A stretch of DNA of 45,989 nt, counting the filler, from Catajapyx aquilonaris (lineage: Eukaryota): the NCBI GenBank assembly GCA_000934665.2. It is 2 parts of 2 records of this genome, joined end to end, with 100 filler letters (N's around TTAATTAATTAA, not from the genome) between each part and the next. Parts side by side here need not be neighbours in the genome. Positions count along the whole stretch, not along the records: positions 23,046 to 45,989 come from JYFJ02005786.1; 1 more part is not named here. One strand, given 5' to 3'. Positions 6,393-45,989 of this stretch are shown piece by piece. Under the pieces are notes generated by a model. That model did no database searches. It was not told the DNA's origin and saw nothing but the letters and a program-made list of their open reading frames with translations. Each line of letters begins with the position of its first letter. Position 1 is the stretch's first letter. The translations under genes were made by a program, and so were the position numbers.

Positions 6393-6395
<3 letters not shown>
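3779..6395 (-). pseudogene. I-clade LINE ORF2, rest of endonuclease and reverse transcriptase, multiple frameshifts
   Basis: LSNILEQCPKPLVMCGDFNAH, SAPGPDGI, WKVARVAPIPKPGK, FFDIKGAFDSV, MFADDIAVW and RPYLDY spread over ORFs 5728-6534, 5042-5416, 4719-5045, 4417-4692, 3859-4347 and 3662-3862. Confidence 0.88.
5635..5974. mobile_element. Fold-back (palindromic) insertion with 11-bp target duplication
   Basis: Direct repeat AGGTCACTCCC at 5624-5634 and 5975-5985; inverted arms ~5644-5931 centred on CCAACATGGCCGCCGGCGGCCATGTTGG. Confidence 0.8.
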
Positions 6396-6440
<45 letters not shown>

Positions 6441-6497
6441 TATTATTATTATTATTCCCCTGCGCCCGAGAGCTTACGGGGAAGACCTCCCATCCAT

Positions 6498-9400
6498 TTA
6501 CAATCCACTTAACCTCTGGAAATTTACAGTACAATATCGCAAAACTTCAAAGATGATACTACTAAAGAAAAAAAGTAGCCTATACATTTGATGCACGGCA
6601 TGAATACGCATAGAAGCAAATAATAAATGTACCTTATCAGGTGGGAGCTTTGGAATACCTCGCAATTTTTTCCTTCTCAATAAACGGAAAAATGGACACT
6701 CATAAATTAAATGGAAAAGAGACCAGTTGACATTACTATTGCAAAGTGAGCATGGGATATCCCGATTTTCTGGAGGGAAGCTCAATTTGTAGTCTTTAAC
6801 GTAAAAGGAATAAGAAGCGTTTCTAAGGTTACTGATCAGTCGAACATACGGGAGAGGAACAGAGTACAAAAAATACTGAGAGAGTCCTATATCCGGCGCC
6901 AAATCAGTATAGTATGTGTAACGTTCTGAAACATGCATGAGCGACCGGTCCTGTTCCATCGAGGCTATTAATTGATTTTTAACTAAAACTTCCCGATTTG
7001 TGAAGTCCCCCTTCAACAGCCACTCTTTCCAATCAAAACCTGACCTCCAAAACAAATCCCTGGTCGCTCTCGCCCATTTCAGATCTACTTTCGCCTCGAT
7101 CAGCCAGTTCAGCGCTATCCTACTCCACCTGTCCTCAGGTAATGCTATTGTTTTCACCAGAAAGTTCAATAATTGCTTGAAAATGTTCACGGAGAGATGC
7201 AGCCTTCCTGTCTCCATCCTTACAAAGTATCCAGCCGTATTTCTAGGGAGCGCCAAGAATTTTTTGATAAAATAAGTTTGGAACCTCTCCACCTCCTCCA
7301 ACCGGTCCAGAGCCCAAAAACTCGCCCCATAGAGTGCGACAGGACTAATTTTAGCATCGAATATTTTAAAGGCCGTTCTTATGTCTCTGATTTTTAGGTT
7401 AATCAACGTAGGCCAAAGAGCATTTACCGTCGCAAATCCCTCCGTTACAAAATATCGAGATGCCCTAGCTGTTTGTGATGAAGATGCAAAGGGAACACCT
7501 AGGTATTTGTATTCTGGCACTACCTCAATCTTATTATCTTTCCAGTGGAAACTGTCCTTGCTAGAAATTTTCCCTCCTTTTCGAAATATGACCACTTTAG
7601 TTTTAGTTACATTTAATACCAGTTTGTTCGCATCAAAGTAGAGCTCCAGTGCTTTTAATCCTTTGCGTAAATCCAGCGGATTGTTCGTCAGAATGACCAG
7701 GTCATCTGCAAATTGCAAAAAATGAATTTCCACCCCGATACTTTTAAATCTTACTCCTGTTATCTCATTTTTACAAAGATTGCTGGTAAATCCGCCAGAA
7801 AGATGTTAAACAATAATGGACTCAATGGTTCCCCTTGCAGCACACCCCTCGTAATGGGTATCCTTTGCTGACCATCGTGTGACACAATATTAGCTGAGGA
7901 ATACACTGATTGCAGAGCATTCATAAATCTACTTTGGCTGACTCCCATAGACAGAAGTTTTGCAAATAGCTCATTGTGTTCTACCGAGTCAAATGCTTTC
8001 GCCAAATCCACAAACAGTGCATAGAGCTTACCTCTTTTTCTTTCAGTGAATTTTTGTATCAGCAGAGTGAGCACGAACAAGTGATCCATACACCCTCTGC
8101 CTCTTCTAAATCCTGCCTGGTTTTCCGGTAACAAATTCATCTCCTCCACCCAAGACCGCAGTCTAGCTTCTCGTTGCCCCGAAAAAAGTTTCATTATATT
8201 ATTTTCCAGTGAAATCGGCCGGTAATTCTCGGGACATGTGTCCGGTCCGGATTTGTATATCGCGATTACGGACAGGTCCATCCAAGTGGATGGTATCTTT
8301 CCCAAATCCAAAAAACTGTTGAATATTTTCAAAATCAGTTCTTGTAGTTCTGGGGAGGAGACTTTCAACAGTTCGTTTGGAATTTGATCGGGCCCACCCG
8401 TTTTTTATTTTTTAGTTGCTTTATGGCACCCTGAAGTTCCCGTAATACTACGGGTCCATCAAGTCTCCGTAACGAAAATGGACTAATTGTCCTGGGAAAC
8501 GCAATTGCGGCTCTTGGTACATACCACTGTTGCAAATACTCTAGCCAGACTTGTTCCTCAAGATTATGTTTACTACCCTTACTCCCACTCCTATGAGTTT
8601 TGACTAAAGACCAGAATTTCGCCATATCCGAGGTGTCCAACAGCTGCTGAATTTTAACATTGTAGAATAAATTTTCCTTCGCCTTAAGCTCTTTCTTGTA
8701 CAGCTGAGCTGCCATTTTATAATTTTGTCGTAGTGCCTCTGTTGGGTCATTTTTCCATACCGCCAGGGCTTTGAGCACAAGCCTTTTATCTTTCCGTAAT
8801 TTTGCATCGTACCAATGAGCTCGGGATTTCCTAGCTTGCAACGAGGGATAATCAAATTTCTGAATTATTCCCGTTTCACTCAATAGAGCTTGCACCAGCG
8901 GAGGAAAGCTCTCTGCCATCTCACTTACTCCCGGTACGTTCTGGATAAGTTGTAGGCATAATTGGGATACTCCCAGTTCCAGTAAATCTTTAACTTCTAC
9001 AATCCTATTCCAATTTATACTTTTCCTTGAGACCCTTTTTATTGGAGCTTCATTCAACCAGAATGAAGTACAGATTGGAAAATGATCAGAGCCCATAATT
9101 TCTAATACCTTGAAGTCAAGTAGAGTAGTTAACAAACCCTGCGACACGATAGAGTAATCAAGCACCGTACTGGCTGTAGTTGCACAAAATGTAAATTCAC
9201 CCTCTCTGTCCGACCTTGAGCGGCCGTTCAAAAGTGTCAAGGACGCCACATCCATAAACTGACATAATTTGCGCCCTTGGGAATTAATCGTTATGTCTCT
9301 CGAGTTTTTTGTGCGCTGCAATGAAGAAACCTCGATAGGATCATATTATATTAAACCTTGTGATTCCAATCCTACTCGAGCATTAAAGTCACCGGATAGA

Positions 9401-9941
9401 ATTACCTCATACCCCGCATCCAGCCAAGGAGTAATAGCTACTTCCAATTGCAACAAGCAATCATCATAATATTTAGATGGAGCAAAATACACTACACCAA
9501 CTATCACTTTTAAATCAAAAGGACAGACCAGCTCAGCAAACATAAACAATGGTGATGACAGCAACAGTTTTGGTTCCCGCCGGGACTGGATTATTAGAGC
9601 CAGGCCACCAGCTGGACGTCCCCTTTTCGCCACCTTGACAGCTTTTTCTTGAAAATACGTCCAGTCCCCACTAACAAACTGCTTTTGTCCGGACATGTCC
9701 CAGGTTTCGACACACCCCAGGATCTCCATATTCTGTATCACATCACTATACACTCACGTAAAGCATCAGCAACTTTTAACCCAGCCACGTTCCATGTAAC
9801 TACACTGCACTCGGATACTTTTTTCACTTTTCCACCATCGCTGCTTCTTTCATTAGAACACCCCACACTGAATTCCACCACCACCGGATGTGCCAACACT
9901 GTCTCTTCCCTGGTCTGGTCCAGACCTCGGGTAGGAACCAC
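6498..9941 (-). pseudogene. LINE ORF2p (APE endonuclease, RT, C-terminal CCHC); at least 3 frameshifts and 1 nonsense codon
   Basis: VVTWNVAGL, GCVETW, SGDFNAR, GSDHFP, NYRPISL, FVDLAKAFDSV, GVLQGEPLSPLLF, QFADD, YKYLG and CSLCN..HLIYEC; in-frame stop at 9346-9348. Confidence 0.9.
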
Positions 9942-9974
9942 ATGAAACTCAGGTGTGACCCACTTTACGAATTG

Positions 9975-10931
9975 CTAGTCATCCTCGATCGTAGCCACTA
10001 CCGCTGCCGGTTGGGCGTCTGATGACTTTGGTTGCTTCTCCGGTTGCTGTTCCGCTGGTGACTGCGCGACCACTCGTTCATCTTCCTCATCCTCGTCTTC
10101 TTCTTCTGTTGGCTCTTCATTGCGGCCATTGGACCTTGAAGCTTGTCTGGCATACTTTTGGGACGTCATCTTCTTAGGGTGAGCTAGGTTGTTCACATCT
10201 CTTGGTGATGTTGAGGATTTCCTTTTTTCCGACCTTGAGGAGAACACGTCAGGCTGACCCTGGGGTTGATCTTCAGTGTGGAGCTTCGTAGGTATTGGTT
10301 CGCTTCCCCTTTTCTTCAGCAGAGTGCCATTTGATTGCAGGACAAACAGACTGTCGTTTATATATAGCTTGTCATATTTTAATGTGGCTTTTTCGCCCTG
10401 GTCTCTTGCCTGGATCATGTATTGGCCCAACTGCCTCCTAATCGCTCTCGTGGGGATACTATAGTCCTCTTTGACGTGGTATGGAGTCCCCTTGAGATTC
10501 CTAGCGTTAGACAGTATAGTCCGTTTATCCTTGAAGAAGGAAAATGCAGCAACAATGGGACGCACTTTTCCCTGCTTTGCTGCACCCAAGCGATGTACCC
10601 TCTCCATTGAAGGGGGGTCTTGATGGGGAAATAACTTGAAGATCTGGATCCAGTGCAATGTCCTGGATTCTGTAATTTCCCACGATTCCTTCGCCTCATC
10701 AGGTATACCCATGATTATGAGGTTCCCCCTCCGGGAGCGGTCCTCTAACGCACGGTTTTTCTCTTGTAGCTCTCGTAACTGCTGCTCCAAGTTGTCGGTT
10801 TTGTCGATCACCTTTTTCATCTGCGAGTGTACCAGAGTCATTTGGGAGCCAATGGTGTCAATTATCGTCTGTTTGAGGTCCTTCAACAACTCACGACGGA
10901 ACTCATCCAAGTCCATGGTGGATTGACCCAT
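9975..10931 (-). CDS. LINE ORF1p, L1/Transposase_22-like (coiled coil-RRM-CTD) with acidic disordered tail
   Basis: Open frame with LEDRSRRGNLIIMGIPD, MERVHRLG, RPIVAAF, LKGTPYHVKEDYS and KYDKLYIND; first ATG at 10931. Confidence 0.85.
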   Translation of the reverse strand: MGQSTMDLDEFRRELLKDLKQTIIDTIGSQMTLVHSQMKKVIDKTDNLEQQLRELQEKNRALEDRSRRGNLIIMGIPDEAKESWEITESRTLHWIQIFKLFPHQDPPSMERVHRLGAAKQGKVRPIVAAFSFFKDKRTILSNARNLKGTPYHVKEDYSIPTRAIRRQLGQYMIQARDQGEKATLKYDKLYINDSLFVLQSNGTLLKKRGSEPIPTKLHTEDQPQGQPDVFSSRSEKRKSSTSPRDVNNLAHPKKMTSQKYARQASRSNGRNEEPTEEEDEDEEDERVVAQSPAEQQPEKQPKSSDAQPAAVVATIEDD

Positions 10932-11078
10932 TATACAATGGTATGCCCCCAACAGTACGCTGATAGTAGACTTTCGCTCCCCACTTCACTGCCCACAAAC
11001 GTAAAATTTAGCCCTGGGCTTGACCGACCGGAGCTCGTTCCACACGAGGCGTACTCTACTGCGTTCTGAGGGAGAGTC

Positions 11079-11462
11079 TATGTTGGAAAGTACATCCTCG
11101 TCAAGGTTTTCACCTGGCGGGTTGTAAAAGCAGGAGATCGTTACCCAACGACTGCCCATTTTCACCCTGCATGCCACCGCCTCTAGAGGGGCTTGCACGC
11201 CCGTCAGATTTAGCTCCGTGCTGGCCATAAAGCACGGTTGTTGGGGCACATATATAGCTACACCGCCACCTTTTGTGTCCCCTCGCCTTGGCTTTGAATA
11301 GGCCAGGTATCCTCTTACATTCTGCGCCTTCCCCCTCTGCCACGTTTCCGTTACAGCGAGGATGGGTGGGTGTATGAAGTCCTCATGTGCTCGTTTGATG
11401 AGCCCTGGCATTTTGTGCTGGAGTGATCGTGGATTCCAGCACACCAGCTTGGCGTCTTTCAT
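11079..11462 (-). pseudogene. I-clade LINE ORF2, N-terminal half of AP endonuclease
   Basis: MKDAKLVCWNPRSL...LAVTETW...GGGVAIYV...CFYNPPGENLDEDVLSNI, ending at the TSD of the nested LINE. Confidence 0.88.
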
Positions 11463-12985
11463 ATTGAATGTGCCAATGCTGCACCCAGTGACTTCTTATC
11501 GGGCAGCAATGATTTGTGAGGGATTATGGGGCGTAGCAATGCTCTGATCCTGCTGATCGTCGACATGCCTTCCCCTTCCTCTGTGAGGGCGAGTGTCACA
11601 GCAGCGACGATGCCCGATATGATTTTCTTCGTTAAAAGGTGTTCGATCTTGCCCTTTATGGCAGGCTTGGGCCTCATGTCCTGTACCGCCTTTTTGGCCT
11701 GGGCATAGGGGGCATAGGGGGCGTGTTAATGTCCGGGTCGGGGGTTGCCGGTTCAGGAGTGGCCATCCCTGGCTTCTGGCCTTTCCTGGAGCCAGCCCCG
11801 CCAGTGGTACGGTTTGTGTTCAGGCTTTTTGGAGATTTTGGCAGGGGCTTGGCAGGAGTTGCATCCATGCCTTTTTTCCCTTTCCCTTTAACCTGTCCCT
11901 TCCCCCTCCTGCCTACTATCGGGGTCTTGGGGGAGGAGGGGAGAGGTGCCATTTCCCCAATTCGAGCAGGTGCTGGTTTTGGCGGTGGGACTTGGGGGAG
12001 GCCCGCAAGGACCTCCCTGTATGTGGCCTTGGCCTGTCTTTTGGCCTCTTTATTACTGGCCCCTTCCTCCTCTCTCAGGCGTCTCGCTTCCTTGGCTACT
12101 AGGTGGCGTGGGCAGCCCTTGCTGAAGGACATATGCTCACCGCCCCAGTTCGCGTATTTCCGAGTTTCCGCCTTGCATCTGCTGGCCCTGTGGTTCTCCC
12201 CACAGTGTCTGCAGCGCCGCATGTTGCTGCAATTTTTTGCCACATGGTGAAACCCCTGGCAGTTCCAGCACTGGATTGGGGGGGGGACAAAGGGGGTAAC
12301 ATTTCGGTCGTTGATCCCTACAGTCACCTTCTTTGGCAGAGCGCCTTTGAAGGTGACCAGAACCGTGCTGCTCGGGATCTGTGTCCCGGCGACATTACGG
12401 CTGAAGCGTTTTGCTTTCACCGCGCCCGTCTCTGCCAGGGCCTCTAAAATGGCTTTGTCAGTGCTCGCTCCCTGAACCTTGATTAGGCCCCGGAAGCGCA
12501 TCGTCTGGGAGCTGGCGGTTGCACTGCACGGGATACCGCTAACCTCCCTTACTGCGGAGAGTTTTTCCGCTTCTTCCTCCGTGGCCACTTTGACACGGAG
12601 GTCGCCCGACTTCAGTACCCACAGCTGAAGGGGCTTAACCCCGTATTGACAAATCGATCTGGCAAGGAGGTTCGGGTTTATTCTCCCGTAGCCGTCCTCC
12701 TTGTTTCTGGGCTTGGACGTTACCGTTCTTACCCCCTTGTGGCGTTTCTGGGCCACGCCTTGCTCTAGCTAGTGTTTTGGGGAGAGCCTGTTTGGCAGCC
12801 ATATGGCATACCTTTTTAGTGGGGATCTGTTGGAGGGGAGGGTCTCCGTTCTCCGTATCGCTCCCAGATGGTGATCGATCTCTCTTGGATGGTCTAGATG
12901 GGCCATCCATTGATTCTGCTGGGCTATCCAGCGTGGGATCGGTATCATTGTCAGGTGCTGCTGCACCACCTTCTCGGGCCGCCAT
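11459..12985 (-). pseudogene. I-clade LINE ORF1 (nucleic-acid-binding, three zinc knuckles), frameshifted
   Basis: Pieces 13003-12635, 12756-11674 and 11677-11459; CWNCQGFHHVAKNC, CRHCGENHRASRC and a degenerate third knuckle YANWGGEHMSFSKGC. The last piece's stop overlaps the ORF2 ATG (ATGA). Confidence 0.85.
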
Positions 12986-14894: not shown

Positions 14895-17800
14895 TCAATC
14901 ACTGCACTCTTCATCTGTATCGGTGTCTTCCATGGATGAGTCATACACAATCGGGTTGACTTCTTCTCCTTCCGTTTCTAGGACAGATTCCCCTTCGTTG
15001 GATTGAGGCAACTGGACTCCACTTGGAAGTGAGGGTATGGTGTACATGACAGGTCTCAATCCATCTTGGTGGGATTCCCATCCGAAGTTAGTAGGGTCCA
15101 GCCGTTTTGCAAGCCTTGAATTCTTATATTCATAAGCTTGCAAGTGACTTCGAAGACAGTGTTGTCTAAACGAGTCCTCGTCGGGAGGCAATCTGGCAGA
15201 AGCATAATATCGTAACTGCCGCCACTTACGTGCTCGGGCTTCGCACAATCGTTTGCTCACTGGGTCATTGTAGATGATGCTAATCGTTAATAACTCCAGT
15301 TGAAGGAACAGCTCATCGGATAGTTCCTCTTCAACTCCAAGTCGCTGTATTATTTGTAGGTACCTCATATTATTTGGCTGAAGAATTCGCTTCATTGATG
15401 TGACCTTCCCCAAGCTGAAGAAACCTTCTACTGTGTCACAACCAGTAAATGTGTAGACTCCAAGAGCAGCACACGCTTTGTCTTGTTCTGAGAACAATGA
15501 GCGACAGTTGTAAAATTCTGCACCATTTCCCGATTTTTTCTTGTACATATACATGTCATGTTCACTTAGGTGACTGATGTACGAAGAAATAACCCACACA
15601 TCTGTGTCTTCGAAATCAAAAACAACTGAATGAGAATCGCCTAACTGTGCTGCTTGGAAGAACGCCCTGGTATCTGCTTCACATGAACACGGTACGCGGT
15701 GCTTCGAATCGGGGATCGCATTCGCCGGATGTGAGATCAAAGCAGAGAAGATCCATGGTGTAGTACCAGTCAGCATTGTGCTCATAGGATTGCCACTCAT
15801 TCAGAAGGAAGTGTTGCAGCCTCTGTTTGTTCGCAGGCTTCGACAGAAATGAATGCCAAGCATTCCCTGTAGGCATTTGCTGGTCAGCAACAGGGTAAAC
15901 GTTTGGGACGAACCCGTACGACTGCATGCGACGTTTCTGCTCGTGATGCTTGGTACTGTCAATCAAGGTTTCTTCACTGTAAATATCATTCACTAAGTGA
16001 AACGCTATTGCTTGAGGATGGCGACTTAGTATGTACCTATACAGGTTGGAGGCATAACGACTCCAAGTCGTGCACGCTGGCACCTTGTTCCATGCCATTC
16101 CGACATCTATGACGACATGGTAAAGTGGTGGCGGCGTCACAGGTTGGAGAGTCAACAGTGTCATGAATTTTGACTTAACTGGTTTATGGAACATAGAGTC
16201 AGCTGTGAAAAGAGATAGGCTCACCGTTGTTATCCTATATTCCATAATATCCAGTAGAGTCATGGTAGGAGTTTCGCCACTCGTTAAGAGATCGACGACT
16301 TGCTTCGTTGCAGTGTGGTCCACCAATGTCCTCATTTCTTGCTTGCTCTTTGTGGACGCAGTCTTTGTCGCTAACGTCTTGCGTTTTCTTTTGCTGATAG
16401 GATCGTGCAGCGATCGAGTTCCATATGAAAGTCGGTCCAAGATTGCTTCTGCCATCGCATTCCCCTCGTCATGGGCTGTGTGCAGACTCTTGACTACTTC
16501 CTCCGACGCTGGCTGTCCAGTGCAAAGTGAGCGAAGACTTGTTCGACTTAGGTCCCATGGGTCCGCGTCCCATTCCTCCAGAGCAAGTTTCACTTCATGA
16601 ATTACATGCAAATCTTTGTTCATCCTCGATGGACCCAATTCTGGGTGGCGGTAAAGAGGTTTCTTCAGATTTATGGTTTGTTGCAATTGCTCTCTTAAGT
16701 ACAACACAGCAGGTCTGCTAAGGATGTTAATAGCAATCATGGAGAGATTCTTGGAGAAACCAACCCAGCCACCACTTCTTCTGTTCTTGGACTGTTTGTT
16801 CATGGTCATTTCAATGACCTGGTCGGGAGGCAATTTGCTGTAACTCTTGCCAGTCAACGAGAATGAGTATATTGAAGCCATATGTATCTTCTCTTCCTCT
16901 GTCAAGGTGGACATTCGCCAGTAGTAAAGAGAGAGGATGCGCAGATAATTTATGTTGCCATACGCCGCTAGAAGAGGAAGCATTCTGCGACAACTATCTA
17001 AGTATTCTTCAAAACTTACTCCACTCCTTAGACAGTGGTAGTGCTCAAACAGCACTTCCACATCAATGATGTAAGAGAGCCAAAATTTTGCCATATCTGA
17101 TGCAGACTCTAAGATATCTTGAAACATCACATGCACGAATTTGTTAAATGAATCTGATGCAACAAAGTCCTCACTTTCTTGTTATGTAGTGATATCTACG
17201 ACGTGTTCTAAACCGTTAAGTAGGTCTGGGTCATTCTCAAGACATCTTTGAATCAGCATGCGTAATAAAGCTTCTGCTATCAATTTGTGCAGACGCATTG
17301 CCCTGTTGTAGTGTTTTTCAGATAATGCTTGCTTTACACTGCCTGCAGCAACAATACCTGCAGCAACAGCTAGCTCCTCGATACCACTTCCTGTCATTCT
17401 CTTTCCTACAGCATTAAGGTATGACATCTCTGTGTGAAATCCACCTAACACGCCCTTTACGAGAGACCACCTATCCTCTTGCTCACACAGACATTCTTCA
17501 ATATATTTATATACTGCTTGATCACCTACAAGTTGAATTAGTGGCATTTTCTTGTGTTCCGCAACTCGTTGACACCAATCCAGCACATCTTTCACAACTT
17601 CTTTGCTTGGTGGCTGAGCGTAAGACTTGACATTATATGTTTCCCACTTCTCCACATCGCTTTGAAGGTTGCAGTGATAACCAATATATGAGGGTACATT
17701 TCCTTCCACTTGAATCACACGCATAAGTGAGTGAGCAATTACTCGGTGTACTATTGGTGCTTGTTCACCGGATTCCAATCTCTTTGGTTGTAACTCACTG

Positions 17801-19298
17801 CATACGCCATCGTGGCTAGAGTTTTTGGCGACAACAGGACAGGCTAGAGTTCTTTTGACTTCAGGCGTTGGTATAGCTAAAGCTATTCCATCGCTACCTG
17901 CTTCACAGCGAGAAGATATTGGTTGGCATTTTCCTGTGATTAAATGCATTACACCTTCAGCAAGGAAACGTACAGCTGGTTGCAATCGTTCCGCAACCAC
18001 TGCGCGGTCTTCTTCCAGTTTAGCATGGGGATCCGCAAGCAAAGCTATTAAGTTGTGAATATCATTAGGGGTATTGTCCTTTTGCAGTTCTTCAACCTGA
18101 CAGGGCCATGGTAATCCAGGCATGTTTCGATGCTTACCGTGTAGAATTTTAGCAACATTCTGTATCAAGTTGGAGGTGTTCGTGCCCCAACTATTCAGCG
18201 CACTTTCGACATATCTTCCCCCGTGCTTAGGAAAAAAGACTATTGATGACTTATTTCGTCTGTATCTCGACTGAAACGCAATATCCTTTCCAAAGTGTGT
18301 TTCCAGTTTTTGGCGAAGTGAGCGTAGGGCGTGCCTGTCGTCGCAGGTGTTCCGGATTTCATCGTTTGTTATCTTCATATCTCTCTGAATTTGCTCATAT
18401 TCGTATAGTAAGTCCCTGAGCGTGTAAACTTCTTTGTGGGTGTCCAAGCACTCACCAACATATTCACACAGTTGATTGAATGCCATGGTTTGTTTTTCTG
18501 TTAACCATTTCAGTCGCTGCTGACGTTGTTCTTTTTTGGCATCACTCGCATTCTGGTTGTGCACTGGTCTGCAGTATGTCTTCCAGCAGTCTTTATGATA
18601 TCGAATATCCAACGCCGCAGCTTTCAGTATCCCCCCTTCATTGTCACAGAATGTAATTAGAGCTTGCAGTCTATTCTTGGTTGGCTCATCTTGAACGTAG
18701 TCGACCGCCTTCGAGAAAGTTTCCCAAGCACCCTGCGTTTCCAGTCTGTGATACGTGACTGGTGTTCTTCCACCTAGGTTGTCTCTAACGGTTTTTCCTG
18801 CCAAGGTTTTGGTACAAATAACGCAAGACGAATGAGTAAAATCCATACGGCTACTTCGTGTACGTGGTTCATTTGTCTGGGGAGTAGGATTTCCAGCAGC
18901 TTCTCCCACATTTGCTCCAAGGATGGATTTCCTATGAGTGTCCGGCGCTCGTGTTAGTTTCTCGCCAACAATTTCAAGCTTGCAGAGTTTGTGAACTTTC
19001 CTAGGCACAGCGTCAACTTGTATTTTCCCATGGATATCATCAAAGCTCGTCCCCAAACCCTTCCACTCTTGTGCTTTCACTGCAATGTTGTTCCAGGTGT
19101 CCTGGTTTGGTTGTTGTAGTGGATTTTTCTCGGACGTTGTTGATTGCTCACATGATATAACACATTAGCCTTCTCTATCTGCTTTGGTTTTCTTGCTGGT
19201 AGGCTCTGGTGGCGATGCAACCAACAAGGCTTGTCTCTTTGTTGATTTTGATGTACTAGGAATATGGCTGTCCATTTTTCCACGTGTCTGTTATTCAC
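14895..19298 (-). pseudogene. Academ transposase fused to XPG/FEN1-like (PIN-fold) nuclease; nonsense codon and frameshifts
   Basis: IRYHKDC, VGDQAVY, LGGFHTEMSYL, HYNRAMRLHKL, PPDQVIEMTMNK (transposase); VIDVG, LVNDIY, EADTR, DTDV, TGCDTVEGFFSLGK, LPPDEDSFRQHCLRS (XPG-like). ORFs 19080-17182 and 17136-15679 are in one frame separated by a TAA; frameshift near 15690. Confidence 0.82.
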
Positions 19299-19617: not shown

Positions 19618-20224
19618 CTAAAAAACCTTACTTTGTGTCTATGACAATTTGTTTCACGATTTGACTATTTTTCGCCGAAAATCAATGCTAACTGTATATG
19701 AGTTAAACGTAAGATTACTTCACTCCTAATTATCCGATTAGGTCAGTCTTGGTATGGAAATGCTTGCAATTCTATTTTCTCACACTTTTGTTTCGGCAAA
19801 ATATTTCGTCGGTAAACGAAAACAAAGTTACCAGTGAAAAAGGACAGCGTAATTGTTCAATTTTCCAGTCTTCAATCATAAAGCCGGCCGTAACTTTGGA
19901 ACTACTACCACCAGGATATTATCTTTGGTAGGTAAATGTCTGTCATACACTTCTCTGTAACTTTCATAGAGGAGAACATTGCTCTGAAATGCACCACAGC
20001 GGAGTTATAAGCAAAAAACGTGAAAGGAGGCGGCGGCCATTTTGGATTCAAGATGGCGGCCAAACGCCAAGATTACAAAAATGGCTCCCACGCTAAATTT
20101 CATCCTTAGGATGTTAAAAACGAGATGCGATCATAAAAAAGGTCCCCCCCCCCNNNNNNNNNNNNCCCCCCCCCCCAAAAAAAAAAAAAAAAAACGCATG
20201 GGTTTCGGTTCCTCGACCGGACTA
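19618..20224 (-). repeat. Right terminal inverted repeat of Academ element (contains a small N gap)
   Basis: Reverse complement of the left TIR; expanded C/A homopolymers around Ns at ~20154-20165. Confidence 0.92.
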
Positions 20225-22945: not shown

Positions 22946-23045
22946 NNNNNNNNNNNNNNNNNNNNNNNNNNNNNNNNNNNNNNNNNNNNTTAATTAATTA
23001 ANNNNNNNNNNNNNNNNNNNNNNNNNNNNNNNNNNNNNNNNNNNN
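22946..23045. other. Artificial scaffold spacer (N44-TTAATTAATTAA-N44)
   Basis: Exactly 100 nt, symmetric Ns around a palindromic six-frame stop linker at 22990-23001. Confidence 0.9.
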
Positions 23046-26477: not shown

Positions 26478-26793
26478 GTATGATACTTTCCATCATTAAC
26501 AACACTATAATAGCATAGTAGTATTTATGTCTGCATGTCCATGATATCAATAGATTGGCCAGGAAATGGTTTCTGTGCACACACACCTATGCAGCACACC
26601 TCTTTGTAAGGAGATCCCTTAACAGGTGGACCAGCCAGTGGTTTCCTAGGTATCTGGATAATCACTGCTGATGGTATTTTGTGAGATCGCTTCTTATGCC
26701 GTAATGATTATTATCACACACAAATCCTGCTCCCTAGGTAACTGTTGTAAGGTGAGTTGGTCCATCTGCCAGGTGATCTTCTTACAGAGAGGC

Positions 26794-27065
26794 CCCCCGA
26801 TGGTATCTCCACCTTATCGTGGTGGTGGGGTTTGCGTTTCTCCCGTGACCCCAAGAGCTATGCCGGCGGTAGCTTCGTCTACTGGTAGGGCCACCCAAGC
26901 CTGACAGGTCTTGGGGGTAGGAGACAGACTAAGAGAGATGCCAGTCTTTCCTCTCTTCTTTTTCCTCTTCGTTTCTCTCTCCATCTGTCCCACCTTTGCT
27001 TCTTCTTAAAACCAGATAGCCATAGTTGCTTTGGCTTCTTCCGAATAAACCAAACCAAACCAAAC
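26794..27065 (+). mobile_element. Short non-autonomous retroposon with RTE-like structured head and (AAACC)n tail
   Basis: 13-bp TSD CTTACAGAGAGGC (26781-26793, 27066-27078); microsatellite tail; no Pol III A/B boxes seen; diverged second copy at ~45534-45781 (minus). Confidence 0.8.
26802..26942 (+). ncRNA. Candidate self-cleaving ribozyme (hatchet-like or HDV-like fold)
   Basis: Pairings GGTATCTC/GAGATGCC, CCAC/GTGG, GTTTG/CAGAC, TCTCC/GGAGA and CCCCAAGA/TCTTGGGG; motifs GGGGTTT and CAGAC-TAA. Activity untested. Confidence 0.4.
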
Positions 27066-28260
27066 CTTACAGAGAGGCATCATGTGTGTTGCCGCATGTG
27101 TTTTTGGACAGGCCAATGTGTCTGTTCATCTACCTCATTACTGGTTGGTCCCTCAACATTTCTCACCCTCTACGTGTTTTTTTTTTTTTAATTTATTTAT
27201 TTTTACTTGTTTTGGGCCAACAAGTACCGTACTCTGCCTGCCGGTTGACCTAGAAAGAAACACCTTGTATATTTCTGCTGATGTGATTGAGTTACATTTC
27301 CAAAATCATGTTGAACTGCAAAAAGTCTTAAACTGTGCCTGTTATGCTTATCAACATTGAACTGCTGAACACGCAAGTCTGCATGTTACTCCACCATTTC
27401 ATATGGTGTGTTTCAATATGAGGAGGTGGCCATAAATCAAGAGTGTCATGATTGGTGGAATTGAACAAAATTAGGCTTCTTTACCTATTGACCTATTTCC
27501 TGATGAAATTTGAAAATGTCTCACTTTGATGGAAATAGGTATCTTTTCCTGTTTTGAAGCATAGGTTTTGAACTTAAATTTGAATTTCCTGAAGTAGGCA
27601 AATTACACTAAATAATATCCATTGCCTACACACATATTCGCTCTAGTGTTTATGTCGAGGGTTGTAGGGCCTACTAGAAACTAGATGATGTCACAGTCTG
27701 AGCAGTATGCTTGCAGAGTGATTCAGGGACATGATAGGAGAGAAGAGCTGGGCGGAGGTGGGGCTGAACGTGACCTCATATCGTTCTTTCCTTTAATGAG
27801 CTGCATTTGGCCAGGCCAACCCGTCATCATTTCTTATTCAGTGTATATATATCTAGAACATCACACTCTCTGAACAGTGACTGGGGTTTGCCCTCTTATA
27901 CACTAGCTTCTCCTTTTCTGTGTACTGCTCCTATCCCAACTAATATCACTGTCATTGGCAGAAGTCCATTTGCAAGGAAAAACCTAGGAAAGAAACAAAG
28001 GAGTTCTCCATCTGGAATAATGCAATACTATCATCGGCTGAAAATAGCTGACTTCAGAAATCACCTCTGATGATAGTGATGAAGATAGATAGCTTTGGCT
28101 AATTTCCCAGATTTCCTCCTCTTGTTACAGCCTCAGGAAAACTGATTTCAACCCGTGTCTTTGGCTCATTAGGTGATCCTTTGCATGAAGATTTTAATGG
28201 CAGTGCCAGCTCAAAAACTCCAAAAAATGAAGATAGACACTTTTGGCAGCCACCTCCTCA

Positions 28261-36841: not shown

Positions 36842-36885
<44 letters not shown>

Positions 36886-37590
36886 TGTTTATTACTGCAC
36901 CCCTGCAATGTTATTACATCAAGAAGGGGGGGGGGAAGAGGTCTCAGAGAGTTACATCCCAGAACCTTAAAGTTTTTACCAAGGCACAAAAAAAGAAATA
37001 CATGTTTGTGGCATATCTGGGACGGTTCAAAATTAAAACATCATTGAACGGTCTGGAGGTGATTTCGGAAACTTCTGTAAGTATTTCAGTCTTGGCGCTG
37101 AGCTGAAAGTACACTCATAAATCACATGAAACAAGCCAAATCTGTCGGGATATTACATAAGGAACAGTTACTTTCTGAATTCAGCGGAATCGTATAGCCA
37201 TTTATAAATAAATACTGTGAGCTGTAATGTAAATTTATAATTAGTCTCTTTTTAGGCAATGGCAGCGGTGAGAGAAGATATTGCTCAAGATGAAAATCAA
37301 CTTGAATTTCCTTGTACAGCTCATATGTATGCGATCTCGCCAAACTTTGCCTGTCTGACTCTATGGAAACATCAGTTATTCTAATAATCAAGTCCCTTAC
37401 ACAGGAAGAGTCAGCCGTCACTAGACCTTGTTGCCAGTGCTCCCAAGACATTCCGGCCTTTGCGAAAAGTCTTATCACAGTTGTTACTCCACGGTATGTC
37501 TGGTCTTGTCTTCAGATAATTGTAAGTTTCAGCTAGTATACTCTCTGCGTTTTCATTTCCCTTCAGCTGTAGGAGAAACTTAATAGTTTA

Positions 37591-37830
37591 AAGGCCGCTT
37601 CACAAACTCGGCGTTGCGAAAGCGGGGCGAAATGCCCGTTTTACAAACTCGGATTTGCGCGAGCGAGGCGTGCTGAGCGTGGAAAATTTGCGAAGGGCTA
37701 TTCACAAATGCTGCGTGCGATGACCGAGCGCGGGCGTTGCGCTGGCGTCCAACCGGGTGGACTTTCTGCGTGCGATGAGCGGAAGGCCCACACGCCACGC
37801 TTTCGCAACGCCGAGTTTGTGAAGCGGCCT
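37591..37830. mobile_element. Palindromic MITE (Harbinger-like ends)
   Basis: AAGGCCGCTTCACAAACTCGGCGTTGCGAAAGCG / CGCTTTCGCAACGCCGAGTTTGTGAAGCGGCCTT; TSD ambiguous (TA or TWA). Confidence 0.8.
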
Positions 37831-38414
37831 TTAGTCTATTTTTCGTTGTTCTCCGAGCGTTGTGTCTCCCCACGAGGGCACCGCCCTATCACGGGGTAGA
37901 TAAATAAATAAATAATAAATTAATAGTTTAAGTACGTTGACGTAGAGATGTCTCCTGCCAGTTTCAAGCCTGAGGAAATAGCCAGCTGTTCTAACAGGGA
38001 GACCCTGGAACTTTTTTAGAAAAAATGTCTGCACCTTTTCTAGCTCTTCCAGATGTGCTAGTGCCCATATCGGTGAATGACATAAGCAGACCGGTAATAA
38101 TTGCGCATTAAATAACTGGAGAGCAGGAGATAGATATTTAATATTTTGAGCCTCGCCAGCATTGGTAAAATAGCATTCACCATCGCAAAACCTCTTGCAA
38201 TAAAGTGCTTAGTCGTGTTGTTGAACTTGGTAGAAGTATGGAAAGGAACTCCCAAGATATTTATAATTGGTGGTGATTACTAGCAGTCTCCCGTTCCAGA
38301 AAAACTTCTCTTTCTCAGAAAGAACCCCACCTTTTCTAAAAATCAAGATCTGTGTTTTTTCAACATTAATAGACAGACCAATTTCATCCAAATACTGCGC
38401 GAGTAGTGTACATC

Positions 38415-39264
38415 TATTTGACGCTGGGTCCTTTTTGGACCCCACGTCGTTTTTTCGATTACAAACTTACATTAACAAAACCATCCAAATATAAATGCTT
38501 CCTAAATTCGACCGGGACTATAAGTGACAAATTTTTTTAAAAATTGACCTCCTCTGACCCTTGGTTGACTCATGAGGCACTGTTTACCAGTATCCTGCGT
38601 GACCCAGCAGCTGTAAGTCTCCTTATTATGTGGCAGAACTGAAACTGGATCTGGTTGACTCATGCTTGACTTCCCGTTGGTGTGAAACCTGTGTATAGCG
38701 GAATCGCACGGAACCATAACATTTTCCGTAATGGACAGGTTTCCTTCACATTCGACACGGAATTCATGTACTGCAGATAAGCCCGTTCCCAGGAAAAATT
38801 CCGCAATGGACATGTTTCCGTTATACTCAGGGTCCGTTATGGACAGGTTTCATGATTGGCATTTGATTCAAGTGCAAGTTGCACTTGAGTCAAATGCAAA
38901 ATCGTCTCTATCTTTTTGGGCGATATAGTACAATACTATACATGGATAATTTTTTTTTACACCTGTGCGATTTTTTATGCTTGCTACATCATGAATTTGC
39001 CATGTCTATTTAGGGTCGGAAAAAACTGGTCGCTAACTTGCAACGTGGGGTCCTCTTTGGTCCCCAAGACGACTTGTGAACGTTTAAATGACGTTAACTC
39101 CCTTTAGAAATTTTTTTCGTCGCTCGTGAATTTTTTTCAGGTGTCAAAGAGTATATTTCAGGAATATAGGTGTGGGAATTTTCATTTTGACAAAAACATG
39201 CTTCAGGGTGGTGACATAAGCATACCTTGGGGTCCGAAAAGGACCCCACGTTGCAAGTTAAGGG
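38415..39264. mobile_element. piggyBac-like MITE remnant plus nested fragments inside the old LINE
   Basis: Right end ..GGACCCCACGTTGCAAGTTAAGGG|TTAA; inverted copy AACTTGCAACGTGGGGTCC at ~39035; related GGGTCCTTTTTGGACCC at ~38425. Left boundary approximate. Confidence 0.55.
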
Positions 39265-40345
39265 TTAAATTTTAAAAATTCTATGCATATCCCAAGTTTG
39301 TTTAACTTGAAGAATAGCAGATGGTGATTCACCGAGTCGAACGCTTTAGAGAGGTCCAAAAATTATATATAAAGTTTGCCTGCTTTCTTATTCACATATT
39401 TTTGTGCAAGGATGGTCAGGGTGAAAGTCAGATCACTGCACGATTTCCCCGATCTGAATCCAGCTTGGGTCAGCGGGAAAATCCTTTCCAGTTCTGCCCA
39501 GTCCAGAAGGCACCTAACCAGAATAGAGGTGAAGAGTTTCAGTGTACTATTCACCAGAGATATTAGTCTATAATTGCACGGATCTAATATTTCTCCCTTC
39601 TTGTACACTGGTATGACCTTGAGTTTTGTCCACTCTAATGGTAGCTTACCTTCGGGGCTGCGTACTAAGCTGTTAAAAGTTCTCAGCAGGATTGATTTCA
39701 TAGCCTCTAGTTTAAGTATCTCATTCGGAATCAAGTCTGGTCCAGGTGCTTTGCTCATTTTCAGCCGTGTTATCGCTACATTCAATTCTTGCTCGCTAAT
39801 CGTGTTATCGCTACATTCAATTCTTGCTCACTAATCGGGTCAACCCGGCCTAAGTTGAGCATGTGCTTTTCCTGCACCCCTCTTTAATATCCCTACTTCC
39901 AAAAATTTCCCAAAACGAAGCTACTCACATCCTAATTGGAACACCCTGTAGAGTTTAGCATCAGAGTGGGGCAATAACAAGGCATAAGTAACAGTAATGT
40001 TTTTGGTAAGAAGACAAGGCCCCCTGTCAGAGGGTCGCCATAATAAATACCTGTCCCCATGCATTTTCATACAAGTGTGACAACACTTATTGCATACTAT
40101 GCCTTAAAATGAGGTGGGGAGGAATGTGGTAAAGGTGATTATCAAAAGTATTGGCTTCTAAAACCAGGTTGGAGTGGACCCATCCTTTTAAAAGCCTGCA
40201 AGATAATGGGACCAGAAAATATATGTAACTTAAATAGCCCATTCCCAATCGGAAATTCAATACAATTCAGAGGTTGGATAAGTGATTCAGTTTATACTAA
40301 TTTTAGCAACTAATAACTGGGTTAACCAATTATAGTAACTCCTTA

Positions 40346-40555
40346 CCGAAGCAGTTTGGTGGAGTGGATAAGGTGTTCGACTGCTAATAGGGAGGTCCTG
40401 GGTTCGAGTCCCGGGGCCGGCAATCCTAACCGTGGTTTTCTGTGGTTTCCCACGGTTCCCCCAGGAGAATTCCGGGATTGCTTCCTAAATGATAGGCCTA
40501 AAGAACCGCCGGCTGATAACGGGGTACATGAATTATGTATTATTAAATTATTAAC
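40346..40555 (+). mobile_element. tRNA-derived SINE
   Basis: A box TGGTGGAGTGG (40357-40367) and B box GGTTCGAGTCC (40401-40411), followed by non-tRNA body GTGGTTTTCTGTGGTTTCCC and an AT-rich tail. Confidence 0.75.
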
Positions 40556-40886
40556 TGCTCAAAAAAGAGCAGCTTCATCCAAAAAAAAAACACTAACTGA
40601 AATGGTTATTTCAATTGGAACCTCCTGTACTATTTTGTCCACTGAAAAAGAGATTTCAACAGGGTCCAGACTGTCACATGGTCCAATAGAGTGAATAACT
40701 TTATACGACCTGGTGAAACAGAGCCTCTCTCCGGTCAGAAAATGTGTGTTGGAGTAAAAATCTAGAATCAGATGGACTTTATTCAGCGATTCTGCCACAT
40801 GTAGGAAAACTGTTAATTATTCTAGCAGCATGATATACTGTAAGTTCCATCGTGGACATATTTCTCTGCATAAATCATTCAAATGT

Positions 40887-41613
40887 TTATTTATTTATTT
40901 ATTTATTTATTTGTCAGCCCCGTGTTGCGAGCCATAGGCTCGTGTGGGGGGACATCCACTCACTACACATATATTAATACATTGTTTTCCATAATAAATT
41001 TGACACTTGGACAAAAGATCAGAGTTGCATAATGTGTGCTTACAAAAAAAGAAAAGAGGACATCATACCAGCAGCAGTGGTGACTAGCACCTCAGTCTTT
41101 TGAAGAAACTTACTATCAACTTCAATAATCACAAAAATTTAGTTTTTTAACTGCAGCGAGGAAGAAAGAATATAGTAGGTACGCATCCATCTTCCGGGTT
41201 TCGACAAATAAATAAAACAACCGATCAGGAGGGAATTTTGGAAGATTAGATAGGAATTTTCTTCTTGGTGAATTGAATAGTTGACATTCATAGATTAGGT
41301 GAAAGATAGAGCGATTTGTGGCCCAGTTACACCAATCGCATTTTTCTGAATCATTTAGGTTAATCGCTAGCTGATTTTGGAGACGAAGGACTTGCGAATT
41401 GTTCCTCAAGTTTGCAAGCAGGCGAATGTGGGAAAGAGGGAGATCCATAGCAAAATAATTTTCAATTCGGAAAGTGAGTTTTATTTCTTTGTAGTGAAGA
41501 TATCTTATTTTAGTGTCTTGTAATCTGTTAAGCTGATCCTGCTTTAGGTCATTTTCAATCTTCCGTAGTGAAATGGGGAGATCTTCAATATCTGCGAGCC
41601 AATTGTTCGTATA
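40887..41613 (-). mobile_element. 5'-truncated RTEX-like LINE 3' end
   Basis: 11-bp TSD CATTCAAATGT (40876-40886, 41614-41624); open 164-aa C-terminus with CDWCN..HLIYEC; (TAAA)n tail. Confidence 0.9.
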
Positions 41614-41632
41614 CATTCAAATGTGGATCTTC

Positions 41633-42083
41633 TTAGTTGTCAAGTGATGGTAACACCTTACTGTGAGCATTCATTTGACCGTGAAGAGCATCGGCCTCTT
41701 CCTGGCCATTCTTGGCATGCATTTGACCACCCTGCTTCCCAGCCCATTTCCTTTTCCTAACCCGTACCCTTTCAACTTCCTGACATTGCTCAAGACTCTT
41801 CCATCTTTGCACCAAATCAGTTCCACATTGATCTAGTGTTGTTTGAATGAATGGGAACGCTTTGAAGTTTGACACCTTTTCTCCATCCACTGTGTAACAC
41901 AAACTCAAAAAGCAATCGCAGCATAACCGTGAACAACTACGATTCATAAATTCCAAGTCACAGACTTCCCAAGTTGCCACCTTACTGCCAGTGCACATGT
42001 GGCAGTACACGGCCATCTCCTGACGCCTGTGCAGGATTACCGGATAACTTGATATCTTGGGGCTGTCACTGGGATGCATCAAC
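41633..42083 (-). CDS. SNAPC3: SNAPC3-like exon 6 (C-terminal zinc finger plus extension)
   Basis: ttcag| LMHPSD..YP..CHMC..ATW..CCDCFLSLCYTVDGEKVSNFKAFPF.. to stop at 41633; the six exons total 1359 nt = 452 aa. Confidence 0.88.
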
Positions 42084-42838
42084 CTGAACATGAGTCCAAA
42101 ATCATGAGTCCATAATCAGAGTGCCATAACACTGTGTAACAAATTTTAACTTTATGTTTGTGTTTGGGCATTTATTGTGTGTTTCAGTTTCCCCGTGTCT
42201 AGAAAGTACAGAAAATGGCAATTATGGTGTAAAACGTTTGCTTTTGTGACCAGGACAATCATAAGTATACAGAGCGATCACAGAACTACTACTGGGCTAA
42301 TGGGGACTAATTCGGGAAAGTGATGTGCAGTACAATCGTAAATCTAGAAAAACCACACATTTCTAAATATTGTCTTTGTTTTAAATATGTCTGAGGATAA
42401 GGTGATGTCTGAGGTGGGCAGGGGTGGGGGGTGGGTCAGGTTGTTTTTAGGTTTATTCTCATGAGTTTTATTAGTTCATATGTTGGGTTAGCTTGCGTCT
42501 CCCTTCATCGCTGACTACCCCTCATAGGGAAATGTCGTGATGTTGTTGTTGTTGTTGTTGTTGTTGTCTTTGTTTTGAAGTAGAAATAAACATTACTTTT
42601 GATCTAGATGTTGTCTGTTTATAAAAATTGAAATTTGTTACCCAAGTACGTATATGGGGATATGCAAAATATATAAGTCATTCTCCTGAGCACAAAGGCA
42701 AACTTTGGCAGGTCTAATGGCCATTATCTCAAGTTTTTAGGCATAAGAAAGCAGGACATAACACTCACTTGCCAAACACAAAAAGTGTGTTACATAGTGT
42801 AATCAGAGTGCATTGGTTTGTGAACATTACGCACTTAC

Positions 42839-45533: not shown

Positions 45534-45781
45534 GGTTTGTTTGCGTAATAAAGAGCCACGCAACTATGGCTAAGTGGTTATCAGAATACAAAAAGGTGGG
45601 ACAGATGGAGAGAGAAACGAAGAGGAAAAAGAAGAGAGGGTCTGTCTCCTATCCCAAAGACCTGTCCGACTTGGGCGGCCCTACCAGTAGTCAGTAGACG
45701 AAACTACCGCCGGCATAGCTCTTCAGGATCATGGGAAAACGAAAGCCTACCACCACGGCAAGGTGGAGATACATTGGGGGG
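45534..45781 (-). mobile_element. Second, diverged copy of the RTE-headed retroposon
   Basis: Reverse complement of 26794-27065 with substitutions and a ~20-nt deletion after CAGAC; short (AAAC)n tail; no clear TSD. Confidence 0.8.
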
Positions 45782-45989
45782 AGAGGGAATTTTTAAAAAT
45801 GGATAAAAAATTGGGGGAAGTGCAAAATTTGAAACGATTTTAAGGCCTGTTTCTACGGTAATCACCAACAAAATTCTGTTGCCACTGGCAAACAATTTTT
45901 TTTGCCTTACATATACGTAGATAATTTCACAGGTATGACCTTCAAAGCCCCTTTTCTCAAAACTGTTCTCATGTGGGTTGACGCATTAT

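Follow-up and report, generated by a model that had tools for sequence, protein, structure and literature searches.

A candidate HDV-like self-cleaving ribozyme at the head of a high-copy, non-coding retroposon of Catajapyx aquilonaris

INTRODUCTION

In Trypanosoma cruzi, an HDV-like ribozyme module (L1TcRz) occupies the first nucleotides of the non-LTR element L1Tc and is shared with a non-coding, non-autonomous derivative, NARTc. As described in PMC3185411, this active ribozyme is 77 nt long, cuts at position +1, starts with C, forms a P1.1 of a single base pair, and also acts as a promoter (Pr77). In arthropods, an HDV-like fold at the 5' end of R2 is described as freeing the element from its co-transcript, and the R2 derivatives called SIDEs, which are internally deleted and non-coding, retain the ribozyme; these elements are confined to 28S rDNA and are low in copy number (PMC3774820; PMC3414825). 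According to the survey in PMC3774820, P1 spans 6-7 bp in R2 ribozymes and contains 1-2 mismatches in a quarter of them, and their P4 is highly variable. RTE and baggins LINEs with HDV-like ribozymes are portrayed as promoterless elements that depend on read-through transcription and 5' self-cleavage (PMC6765202; PMC7761336). Two further systems are known from schistosomes. The RTE-clade element Perere-3 of Schistosoma mansoni carries twister T-variants at its 5' end, with the target-site duplication (TSD) beside the cut (PMC8501958), and short non-coding, SINE-like retroposons carry a self-cleaving hammerhead ribozyme, are transcribed by Pol III, and work as tandem copies (PMC6765202).

Here we describe a short retroposon in a 45,989-nucleotide stretch of the Catajapyx aquilonaris genome (GCA_000934665.2), filler included, which we refer to as the window. 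Like NARTc, the element is non-coding, and like both L1Tc and NARTc it has an HDV-like module, here a predicted one, at its first nucleotides, with a predicted cut at position +1, C as the first base, and a possible single-pair P1.1; it differs in its head of about 150 nt, its conserved P4 of 100 nt, and its animal host. Because the active L1Tc ribozyme shows both features in the account of PMC3185411, a C start and a weak P1.1 are not without precedent. The predicted release from a co-transcript and a mismatch-tolerant P1 of 6-7 bp recall R2 and its SIDEs, and the mismatched quarter of R2 ribozymes (PMC3774820) gives the P1 mismatch described below a precedent as well. Unlike those elements, however, the family studied here is dispersed, has about 1,300 matching contigs per run, and carries a pentanucleotide repeat at its 3' end. 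The transcriptional context described for RTE and baggins LINEs is the one proposed here for our element, a likeness of descriptions rather than of sequences. Perere-3 shares collinear sequence blocks with the distal P4 of our head, and the schistosome hammerhead elements, although of another ribozyme class, resemble it as short non-coding retroposons with a self-cleaving ribozyme, which here is a candidate.

RESULTS AND DISCUSSION

The element and its borders

Retroposon copy 1 occupies positions 26793/4-27066 on the plus strand and comprises about 273 bp of non-coding DNA (Table 1). A preliminary description of this DNA had placed a retroposon with a 13-bp TSD and an (AAACC)n tail at 26794..27065, and both its coordinates and its anatomy proved correct. 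The same description had seen no ORF of note and no A or B boxes. Only two ATG ORFs of at least 30 aa overlap the copy, and both are incidental (77 aa on the plus strand, starting in the flank, and 56 aa on the minus strand). No Pol III head is recognizable either: ARAGORN found no tRNA gene in the window, Rfam returned no tRNA, 5S, 7SL, or snRNA match to the element, and there was no Rfam match at gathering score across the whole window. Because neither ARAGORN nor Rfam gave anything that would indicate a Pol III head, we call the element SINE-like rather than a SINE. With its TSD, its simple-repeat 3' tail, its lack of an ORF, and its many dispersed and 5'-truncated copies, it is a LINE-dependent, non-autonomous retroposon.

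Table 1. Positions of the element, of the strands proposed for its head, and of other features in the window
Feature	Position	Strand	Details
TSD, 5' copy	26781..26793	.	CTTACAGAGAGGC; final C (26793) alternatively element base 1
Retroposon copy 1	26793..27066	+	head, CT-rich body, 3' tail module, (AAACC)4
P1 5' strand (proposed)	26793..26798	+	CCCCCC; relatives CTCCCCC (CUCCCCC)
J1/2 (proposed)	26799-26801	+	relatives GAU
P2 5' strand (proposed)	26802..26809	+	GGTATCTC; relatives GGTGTCTC (RNA GGUGUCUC) paired with GAGACACC
Spacer P2/P3 (proposed)	26810	+	relatives C
P3, L3, and P3' (proposed)	26811..26823	+	ACC/GGT with 7-nt loop TTATCGT
P3; L3; P3'	26811-13; 26814-20; 26821-23	+	P3 ACC; P3' GGU; L3 of relatives UUAACGU
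P1 3' strand (proposed)	26824..26830	+	GGTGGGG; relatives GGGGGAG
P4 arm (proposed)	26831..26928	+	98 nt; about 100 nt in relatives
P4 basal helices	26831-34 with 26925-28; 26839-43 with 26920-24	+	TTTG/CAGA; TCTCC/GGAGA; two both-side changes
Distal P4 domain	26855..26910	+	most conserved part of head; twister-like blocks GTAG..CTACTG, CCCAAGC, CGG
J4/2 (proposed)	26929..26934	+	CTAAGA; relatives CGAAGA; candidate catalytic C at 26929
P2 3' strand (proposed)	26935..26942	+	GAGATGCC; relatives GAGACACC
CT-rich body	26943..27011	+	unrelated to body of metagenome relatives
3' tail module	27012..27046	+	hairpin AGCCA (27018-22) / TGGCT (27032-36)
(AAACC)4 tail	27047..27066	+	TRF: (AAACC)x4.0
TSD, 3' copy	27066..27078	.	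CTTACAGAGAGGC; 13-bp direct repeat
Copy 2	45534..45783	-	diverged, internally deleted
RVT_1 matches	3859-4416, 6498-8404, 39363-39827	-	
CCHC-knuckle ORF1-like frame	11674-12768	-	
(TAA)n arrays	6394-6456, 36842-36884		at presumed 3' ends of LINE fragments

Abundance and variation of the family

Five public runs, none of them recorded as RNA, contain the locus. Contigs of runs X1, X2, X3, and X5 were placed on positions 26700-27150 at 80% likeness, which yielded 1275, 1308, 1357, and 59 contigs, respectively. Their summed depth, which is not equivalent to copy number, amounted to 30,000-120,000 within 26796-27066 as opposed to 345-2,500 in the flanks. Depth climbs at 26796, drops at 27067, and is lower toward the 5' end of the element. 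Just before 26793, 13 of the X1 contigs diverge into upstream sequences that have nothing in common, and we therefore set the 5' border of the family at 26793. A second point of divergence lies just before 27012, where 16-18 contigs per run share only the 3' module and the tail and continue upstream into a different, loosely conserved sequence (consensus agreement of about 0.5). Since these contigs match from 27012 onward only, we conclude that another family, possibly the partner LINE, has the same 3' module.

Among the variants listed, the family majority departs from copy 1 at 26902 (G), 26913 (T), 26917 (A), and 27011 (G). None of the listed variants falls within 26796-26844, an observation that is suggestive only. 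At position 26940, about 55-65% of the family carries A, which completes perfect complementarity to 26802-09, and the G/A polymorphism at this site preserves a pair with T26804 (U.G or U:A). The flanks of the insertion (26700-26793 and 27079-27150) have a summed contig depth of 345-1,450, compared with about 20-35 for single contigs, and show variants in 5-32 contigs. They are thus repeated as well, and copy 1 lies within another, lower-copy repeat.

A head shared with a second retroposon family

A single 21-mer from the head led to six metagenome loci (L006-L011), all of which match only the first 145-149 nt of the element, at 81-85% identity. The match extends over element nt 1-145/149 in four loci, 16-145 in L009, which is a 5'-truncated relative, and 61-145 in L010, where the contig ends. 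L008 and L011 share the same flanks and probably represent a single locus in two assemblies, so the number of independent insertions is five. Downstream of the head, the relatives continue into unrelated sequence and finish in a (GAA)n end. In L007, a 12-bp duplication (TTTACATATAAT) adjoins the first base of CTCCCCC, and L006 has a 10-bp near-duplication that adjoins the same base at the equivalent position. Because both duplications abut its first base, the head is the true 5' terminus in another element family. Given these duplications and the difference in bodies and tails, the head is a discrete 5'-terminal module common to two retroposon families.

In the relatives (L006 460-760, with L007 and L009 likewise), which are retroposons of about 445 bp, the head gives way to a GC-rich stretch of 60 nt, then to a run of 7-8 A's at about 215 nt, an unrelated body, and finally (GAA)n. 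An A-run in this internal position suggests that these elements are of composite origin. Scans of viral contigs gave either no match or chance matches only (5 loci with at most 21 nt alike), metagenome and genome contigs scanned with the first pattern gave no match, and a bacterial scan returned chance matches only (38 loci with at most 29 nt alike). Head 14-16-mers were absent from the paper texts searched, which were drawn from outside Repbase and the subscription journals.

One head joined to different bodies and tails in two families is what SINE head modules look like, and the A-run about 215 nt into the relatives also agrees with a classical SINE whose head is of a new kind, derived from a small cellular RNA that is as yet undescribed and whose Pol III promoter is internal. 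We think it very unlikely that the head arose in this way, given that no tRNA was detected, that no Rfam family matches, and that the first base is C. Strings resembling A and B boxes could be picked out by eye in the head, but they are not conserved between the two lineages, and a Pol III reading of them was rejected.

An HDV-like strand order in the head

HDV-like ribozymes form a nested double pseudoknot in the order P1-P2-P3-L3-P3'-P1'-P4-J4/2-P2' and cut at nucleotide 1 of P1, as set out in PMC4908430. The strands of the head follow this order in the relatives. P1, for which the preliminary description had seen no canonical candidate, is in fact evident: in four relatives it pairs at 7/7 positions by Watson-Crick pairing, starting at element nucleotide 1. 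In copy 1, it pairs at 5 of 7 alignment columns, or at 5 of 6 positions if the element begins at 26793, and T26826 stands opposite C26796 as a C.U mismatch that is present in P1 of both window copies. P2, for which at least 5 bp are expected in this ribozyme class (PMC3774820), has 8 bp and is paired at 8/8 positions in the 5 sequences that cover it. The three pairs of P3 are uninformative either way because they are invariant in all seven covering sequences. L3 is 7 nt long and is conserved at positions 1, 2, 5, 6, and 7, and a possible P1.1, which would join L3 to the bases that follow P1', consists of a single A:U pair (G.U in copy 2), where 1-2 bp would be expected. A C is found at the J4/2 position in 6 of the 7 covering sequences, the other being L010 with T, and C26929, which is followed by TAA in copy 1 and by GAA in the relatives, is a candidate for the catalytic C of J4/2. 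The placement of P1 also agrees, in a positional sense only, with what would be expected of a cleavage site, as the TSDs of L007 and L006 adjoin P1 base 1 and the family border in the window lies at 26793.

Every stem drawn in the preliminary description is present in the sequence at the positions it gave, and most of them can be placed within the HDV-like scheme. Its CCAC-CTTATC-GTGG hairpin corresponds to P3/L3 with the register shifted by 1-2 nt, and its GTTTG/CAGAC and TCTCC/GGAGA stems form the base of P4. Its closing stem (GGTATCTC/GAGATGCC) is P2, and the C-T-A-A that it had remarked on before this stem is located at the HDV-like J4/2 position. Both the closing stem and TCTCC/GGAGA show compensatory changes in the relatives, in agreement with the view that the 5' part is a conserved structured RNA. 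The covariation proposed for CCCCAAGA/TCTTGGGG held only within the window: copy 2 does pair ATCCTGAAGA/TCTTTGGGAT, but the relatives keep just CCC/GGG and GA/TC. Within this stem, the family majority has the letters of copy 2 at 26913 and 26917.

The second copy that had been noted at 45534-45781 exists and lies on the minus strand. In a self-BLAST of the window, it aligns at 45779-45560 with 78.2% identity over 243 columns, and the remaining matches of the element in the window are at most 28 nt long with E values of at least 0.4. Its 5' start is CTCCCCCC, as in the metagenome relatives. However, it is without the 20 nt equivalent to 26930-26949 and has thereby lost J4/2 and half of P2, and its P1 pairs at only 4 of 7 positions. 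Because of this deletion, which takes the P2 3' strand, and the poor pairing of P1, we consider copy 2 a dead copy.

Statistical tests of the fold

The fold was scored on alignment A4 (8 rows, 33 pairs, and 209 cells). On these sequences, which are the same few that defined the fold and which effectively represent two lineages, the six relatives being nearly identical, 95.7% of the cells pair, a share that falls to 41.5-53.1% once the partners are slid by 1-3 columns. In A4, changes on both sides affect four pairs, compared with 0-2 in the slid controls: one in P1 (columns 2:38, U:A to C:G), one in P2 (14:157, G:C to A:U), and two in P4 (50:142, G:C to U:A, and 53:139, U:A to C:G). Compensatory change is thus limited to a single pair in P1 and a single pair in P2. 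The covariation score was 0.085, compared with 0.051 in shuffles, of which 1 of 500 attained the observed value. When copy 1 is set against L007, 3 compensatory changes are seen where 0.36 would be expected, and 36 of 20,000 random placements gave 3 or more.

We also searched with a descriptor that combines a P1 of 7 bp, a P2 of at least 7 bp, a P3 of 3-4 bp, an L3 of 5-9 nt, and C-N-R-A at most 3 nt before P2', with parameters drawn in part from the ribozymes described in PMC3774820. With zero mismatches, it matches L006 and L007, in each case with P1 exactly at the first element base, and copy 1 fits its order with one P1 mismatch. It has no match in copy 2, in which the 3' strand is deleted, or in the 5'-truncated L009. 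Dinucleotide shuffling reproduced a match with this fixed start twice in 20,000 trials and a match anywhere in the shuffled stretch 11 times in 1,000. Because the descriptor also matches 18 places in the 92 kb that make up both strands of the real window, it proves little by itself. A P1 that satisfies the strict descriptor in copy 1 by drawing on flank bases 26790-26796 was discarded as a copy-specific coincidence.

Folding energies from RNAfold were no better than those of dinucleotide shuffles, with z scores of -0.61 for 26794-26950, +0.56 for the head of copy 2, and -1.47 for the whole element; a further z of -0.23 was likewise ordinary. Searches of Rfam for ribozyme families (HDV-like, CPEB3, drz, hatchet, twister, hammerhead, pistol, and others) found none at E<=10 in 26700-27150, L006, L007, L009, or L006 310-475, and at this threshold Rfam yielded only weak matches to other RNA classes, snoRNA and miRNA models among them, which we take as noise. 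The hatchet, HDV-like, and twister models, which the preliminary description had thought worth comparing, thus matched neither the window copy nor the relatives. For the HDV-like models, we treat this as a weak negative because they cannot score pseudoknots or a 100-nt P4. The reading of the head as a hatchet ribozyme, with which the preliminary description had begun, is one to which we give practically no credence. In the description of PMC6154101, the hatchet layout has four stems (P1-P4), and nucleotides in its linkers and bulges are conserved; the covarying helices of the head follow the HDV-like strand order instead. The resemblance of motifs noted in the preliminary description is all that speaks for a hatchet, and Rfam gave no hatchet match at E<=10.

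Uneven conservation and the distal P4 domain

Conservation between copy 1 and L006 varies strongly along the head. The two sequences are identical at 33 of 39 columns in the core, at 15 of 24 and 12 of 18 columns in the basal P4 strands, and at 52 of 56 columns in the distal P4, and this falls to 4 of 12 columns after the head. The basal P4 helices vary in sequence with their pairing kept, and the distal domain is conserved in the sequence itself. RNAalifold predicts a three-way junction for the distal P4, where no covariation is seen. Because the distal P4, and not the catalytic core, is the most conserved part, selection may act on something besides cleavage.

This pattern bears on whether the head is catalytic at all. 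It could be a conserved structured 5' module of another sort, either a piece of a LINE 5' UTR that binds a retrotransposition protein or a promoter acting at the DNA level, with the HDV-like pairing fortuitous. Such a module would accommodate a distal P4 that is the best conserved part of the head as well as the empty Rfam searches for ribozymes; moreover, the nested helices P2, P3, and P4 alone account for 3 of the 4 compensatory pairs, and the background rate of the descriptor is high. It sits less well with the 5' end of the relatives, where the first seven bases are perfectly complementary to the seven bases right after the P3 hairpin, and the nested minimum-energy fold leaves both of these strands free. 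A pseudoknot also fits the change of U:A to C:G in P1, and 2 nt upstream of the P2 3' strand there is a C-N-R-A motif. The first base of the element is C, and it is unusual for transcription to start at C. On balance, we regard a head without catalysis as rather unlikely, though an alternative to be taken seriously.

The distal P4 of the relatives also contains, in order, the blocks of Schistosoma twister ribozymes as given in Table 1 of PMC8501958: GC, GUAGC...GCUACUG, CCCAAGC, CGG, a 4-nt strand complementary to an upstream 4-mer, and A-GGG. A three-block pattern matches 5 of the 6 relatives and 0 of 100 window shuffles. The active unit might accordingly be a ribozyme of the twister type, located centrally in the head and similar to those at the 5' ends of Perere-3, but we consider this very unlikely. 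The same three-block pattern matches 0 places in the window, window copies included, and no Rfam twister match was obtained at E<=10. In PMC8501958, twisters are characterized by adenines conserved at the cleavage site in L1, by an L2 strand rich in A, and by an L4 that can form two pseudoknots. An L4-like CCCAAGC is present in the head, but the loop expected to hold the cleavage-site adenines is variable (GAG, GCA, GUG, and AUG) and the A-rich strand is replaced by ACA. The motif would also put the cut about 56 nt downstream of the element's 5' end, yet these 56 nt are retained in full-length copies, and strings from the head are absent from the PMC8501958 supplement. The twister likeness could mark a twister-derived domain or be a coincidence. 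It is the sole hint, and an indirect one, of the link to RTE elements that the preliminary description had proposed.

A broader interpretation would unite these observations in a metazoan superfamily of SINE-like elements in which a ribozyme head replaces the Pol III promoter, with the head maintained at 81-85% identity (93% in the distal arm) in different hosts and in families that share neither body nor tail. The head would then be a composite of an HDV-like scaffold and a P4 that is either twister-derived or of new function, such as docking the partner reverse transcriptase. We offer this as a long shot, distinctly improbable at present.

A model for the origin of new copies

Our preferred reading, which we hold with a little more confidence than doubt, is that copy 1 is one copy of a high-copy, non-coding, LINE-dependent family whose first 150 nt or so form the module of an HDV-like self-cleaving ribozyme, intact or slightly decayed. 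As judged from sequence comparison, the element is probably a ribozyme-headed, non-autonomous non-LTR element, which is a class already known. Such an element would probably be promoterless and would be transcribed within longer transcripts. Its head would adopt the nested double pseudoknot and cleave directly upstream of element nucleotide 1, and this self-cleavage would give the template for retroposition its exact 5' end. A partner LINE would recognize the 3' hairpin and the (AAACC)n tail (27012-27066), and target-primed reverse transcription would copy the RNA and leave a duplication of 12-13 bp, an insertion footprint that is observed. Copy 1, with the C.U mismatch in its P1, may cut poorly. 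Within the window, we found no LINE with the head or tail of the element; the LINE fragments there (RVT_1) have no sequence in common with it and adjoin (TAA)n rather than (AAACC)n.

If the head cleaves, this would explain the very high copy number of a short, promoterless element, since any host transcript could supply it with a precise 5' end. The family would then be a dispersed, high-copy example from an animal beside the few known ribozyme-headed non-autonomous elements (NARTc and the R2 SIDEs), and its head would be a large natural HDV-like ribozyme with a strongly conserved peripheral domain. In that event, the element would bear on the control of HDV-like ribozymes by peripheral domains, a subject treated in PMC4908430, and on the exchange of retrotransposon ribozyme modules between element families.

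Other features of the window

Several fragments of non-LTR retrotransposons are present on the minus strand at 3859-12768 and 37122-42115 (Table 1). A 35-bp tandem repeat of 2.1 copies with a 97% match lies within a LINE fragment at 39766-39837. Also on the minus strand, three stop-free frames that abut one another, with 660, 500, and 301 codons adding up to about 1,460, extend over 14895-19164; they have no Pfam match at E<=0.001 and may represent an undescribed transposon protein or a decayed gene. Runs of N at 20154-20165, 22946-22989, and 23002-23045, 100 in all, were read as assembly gaps.
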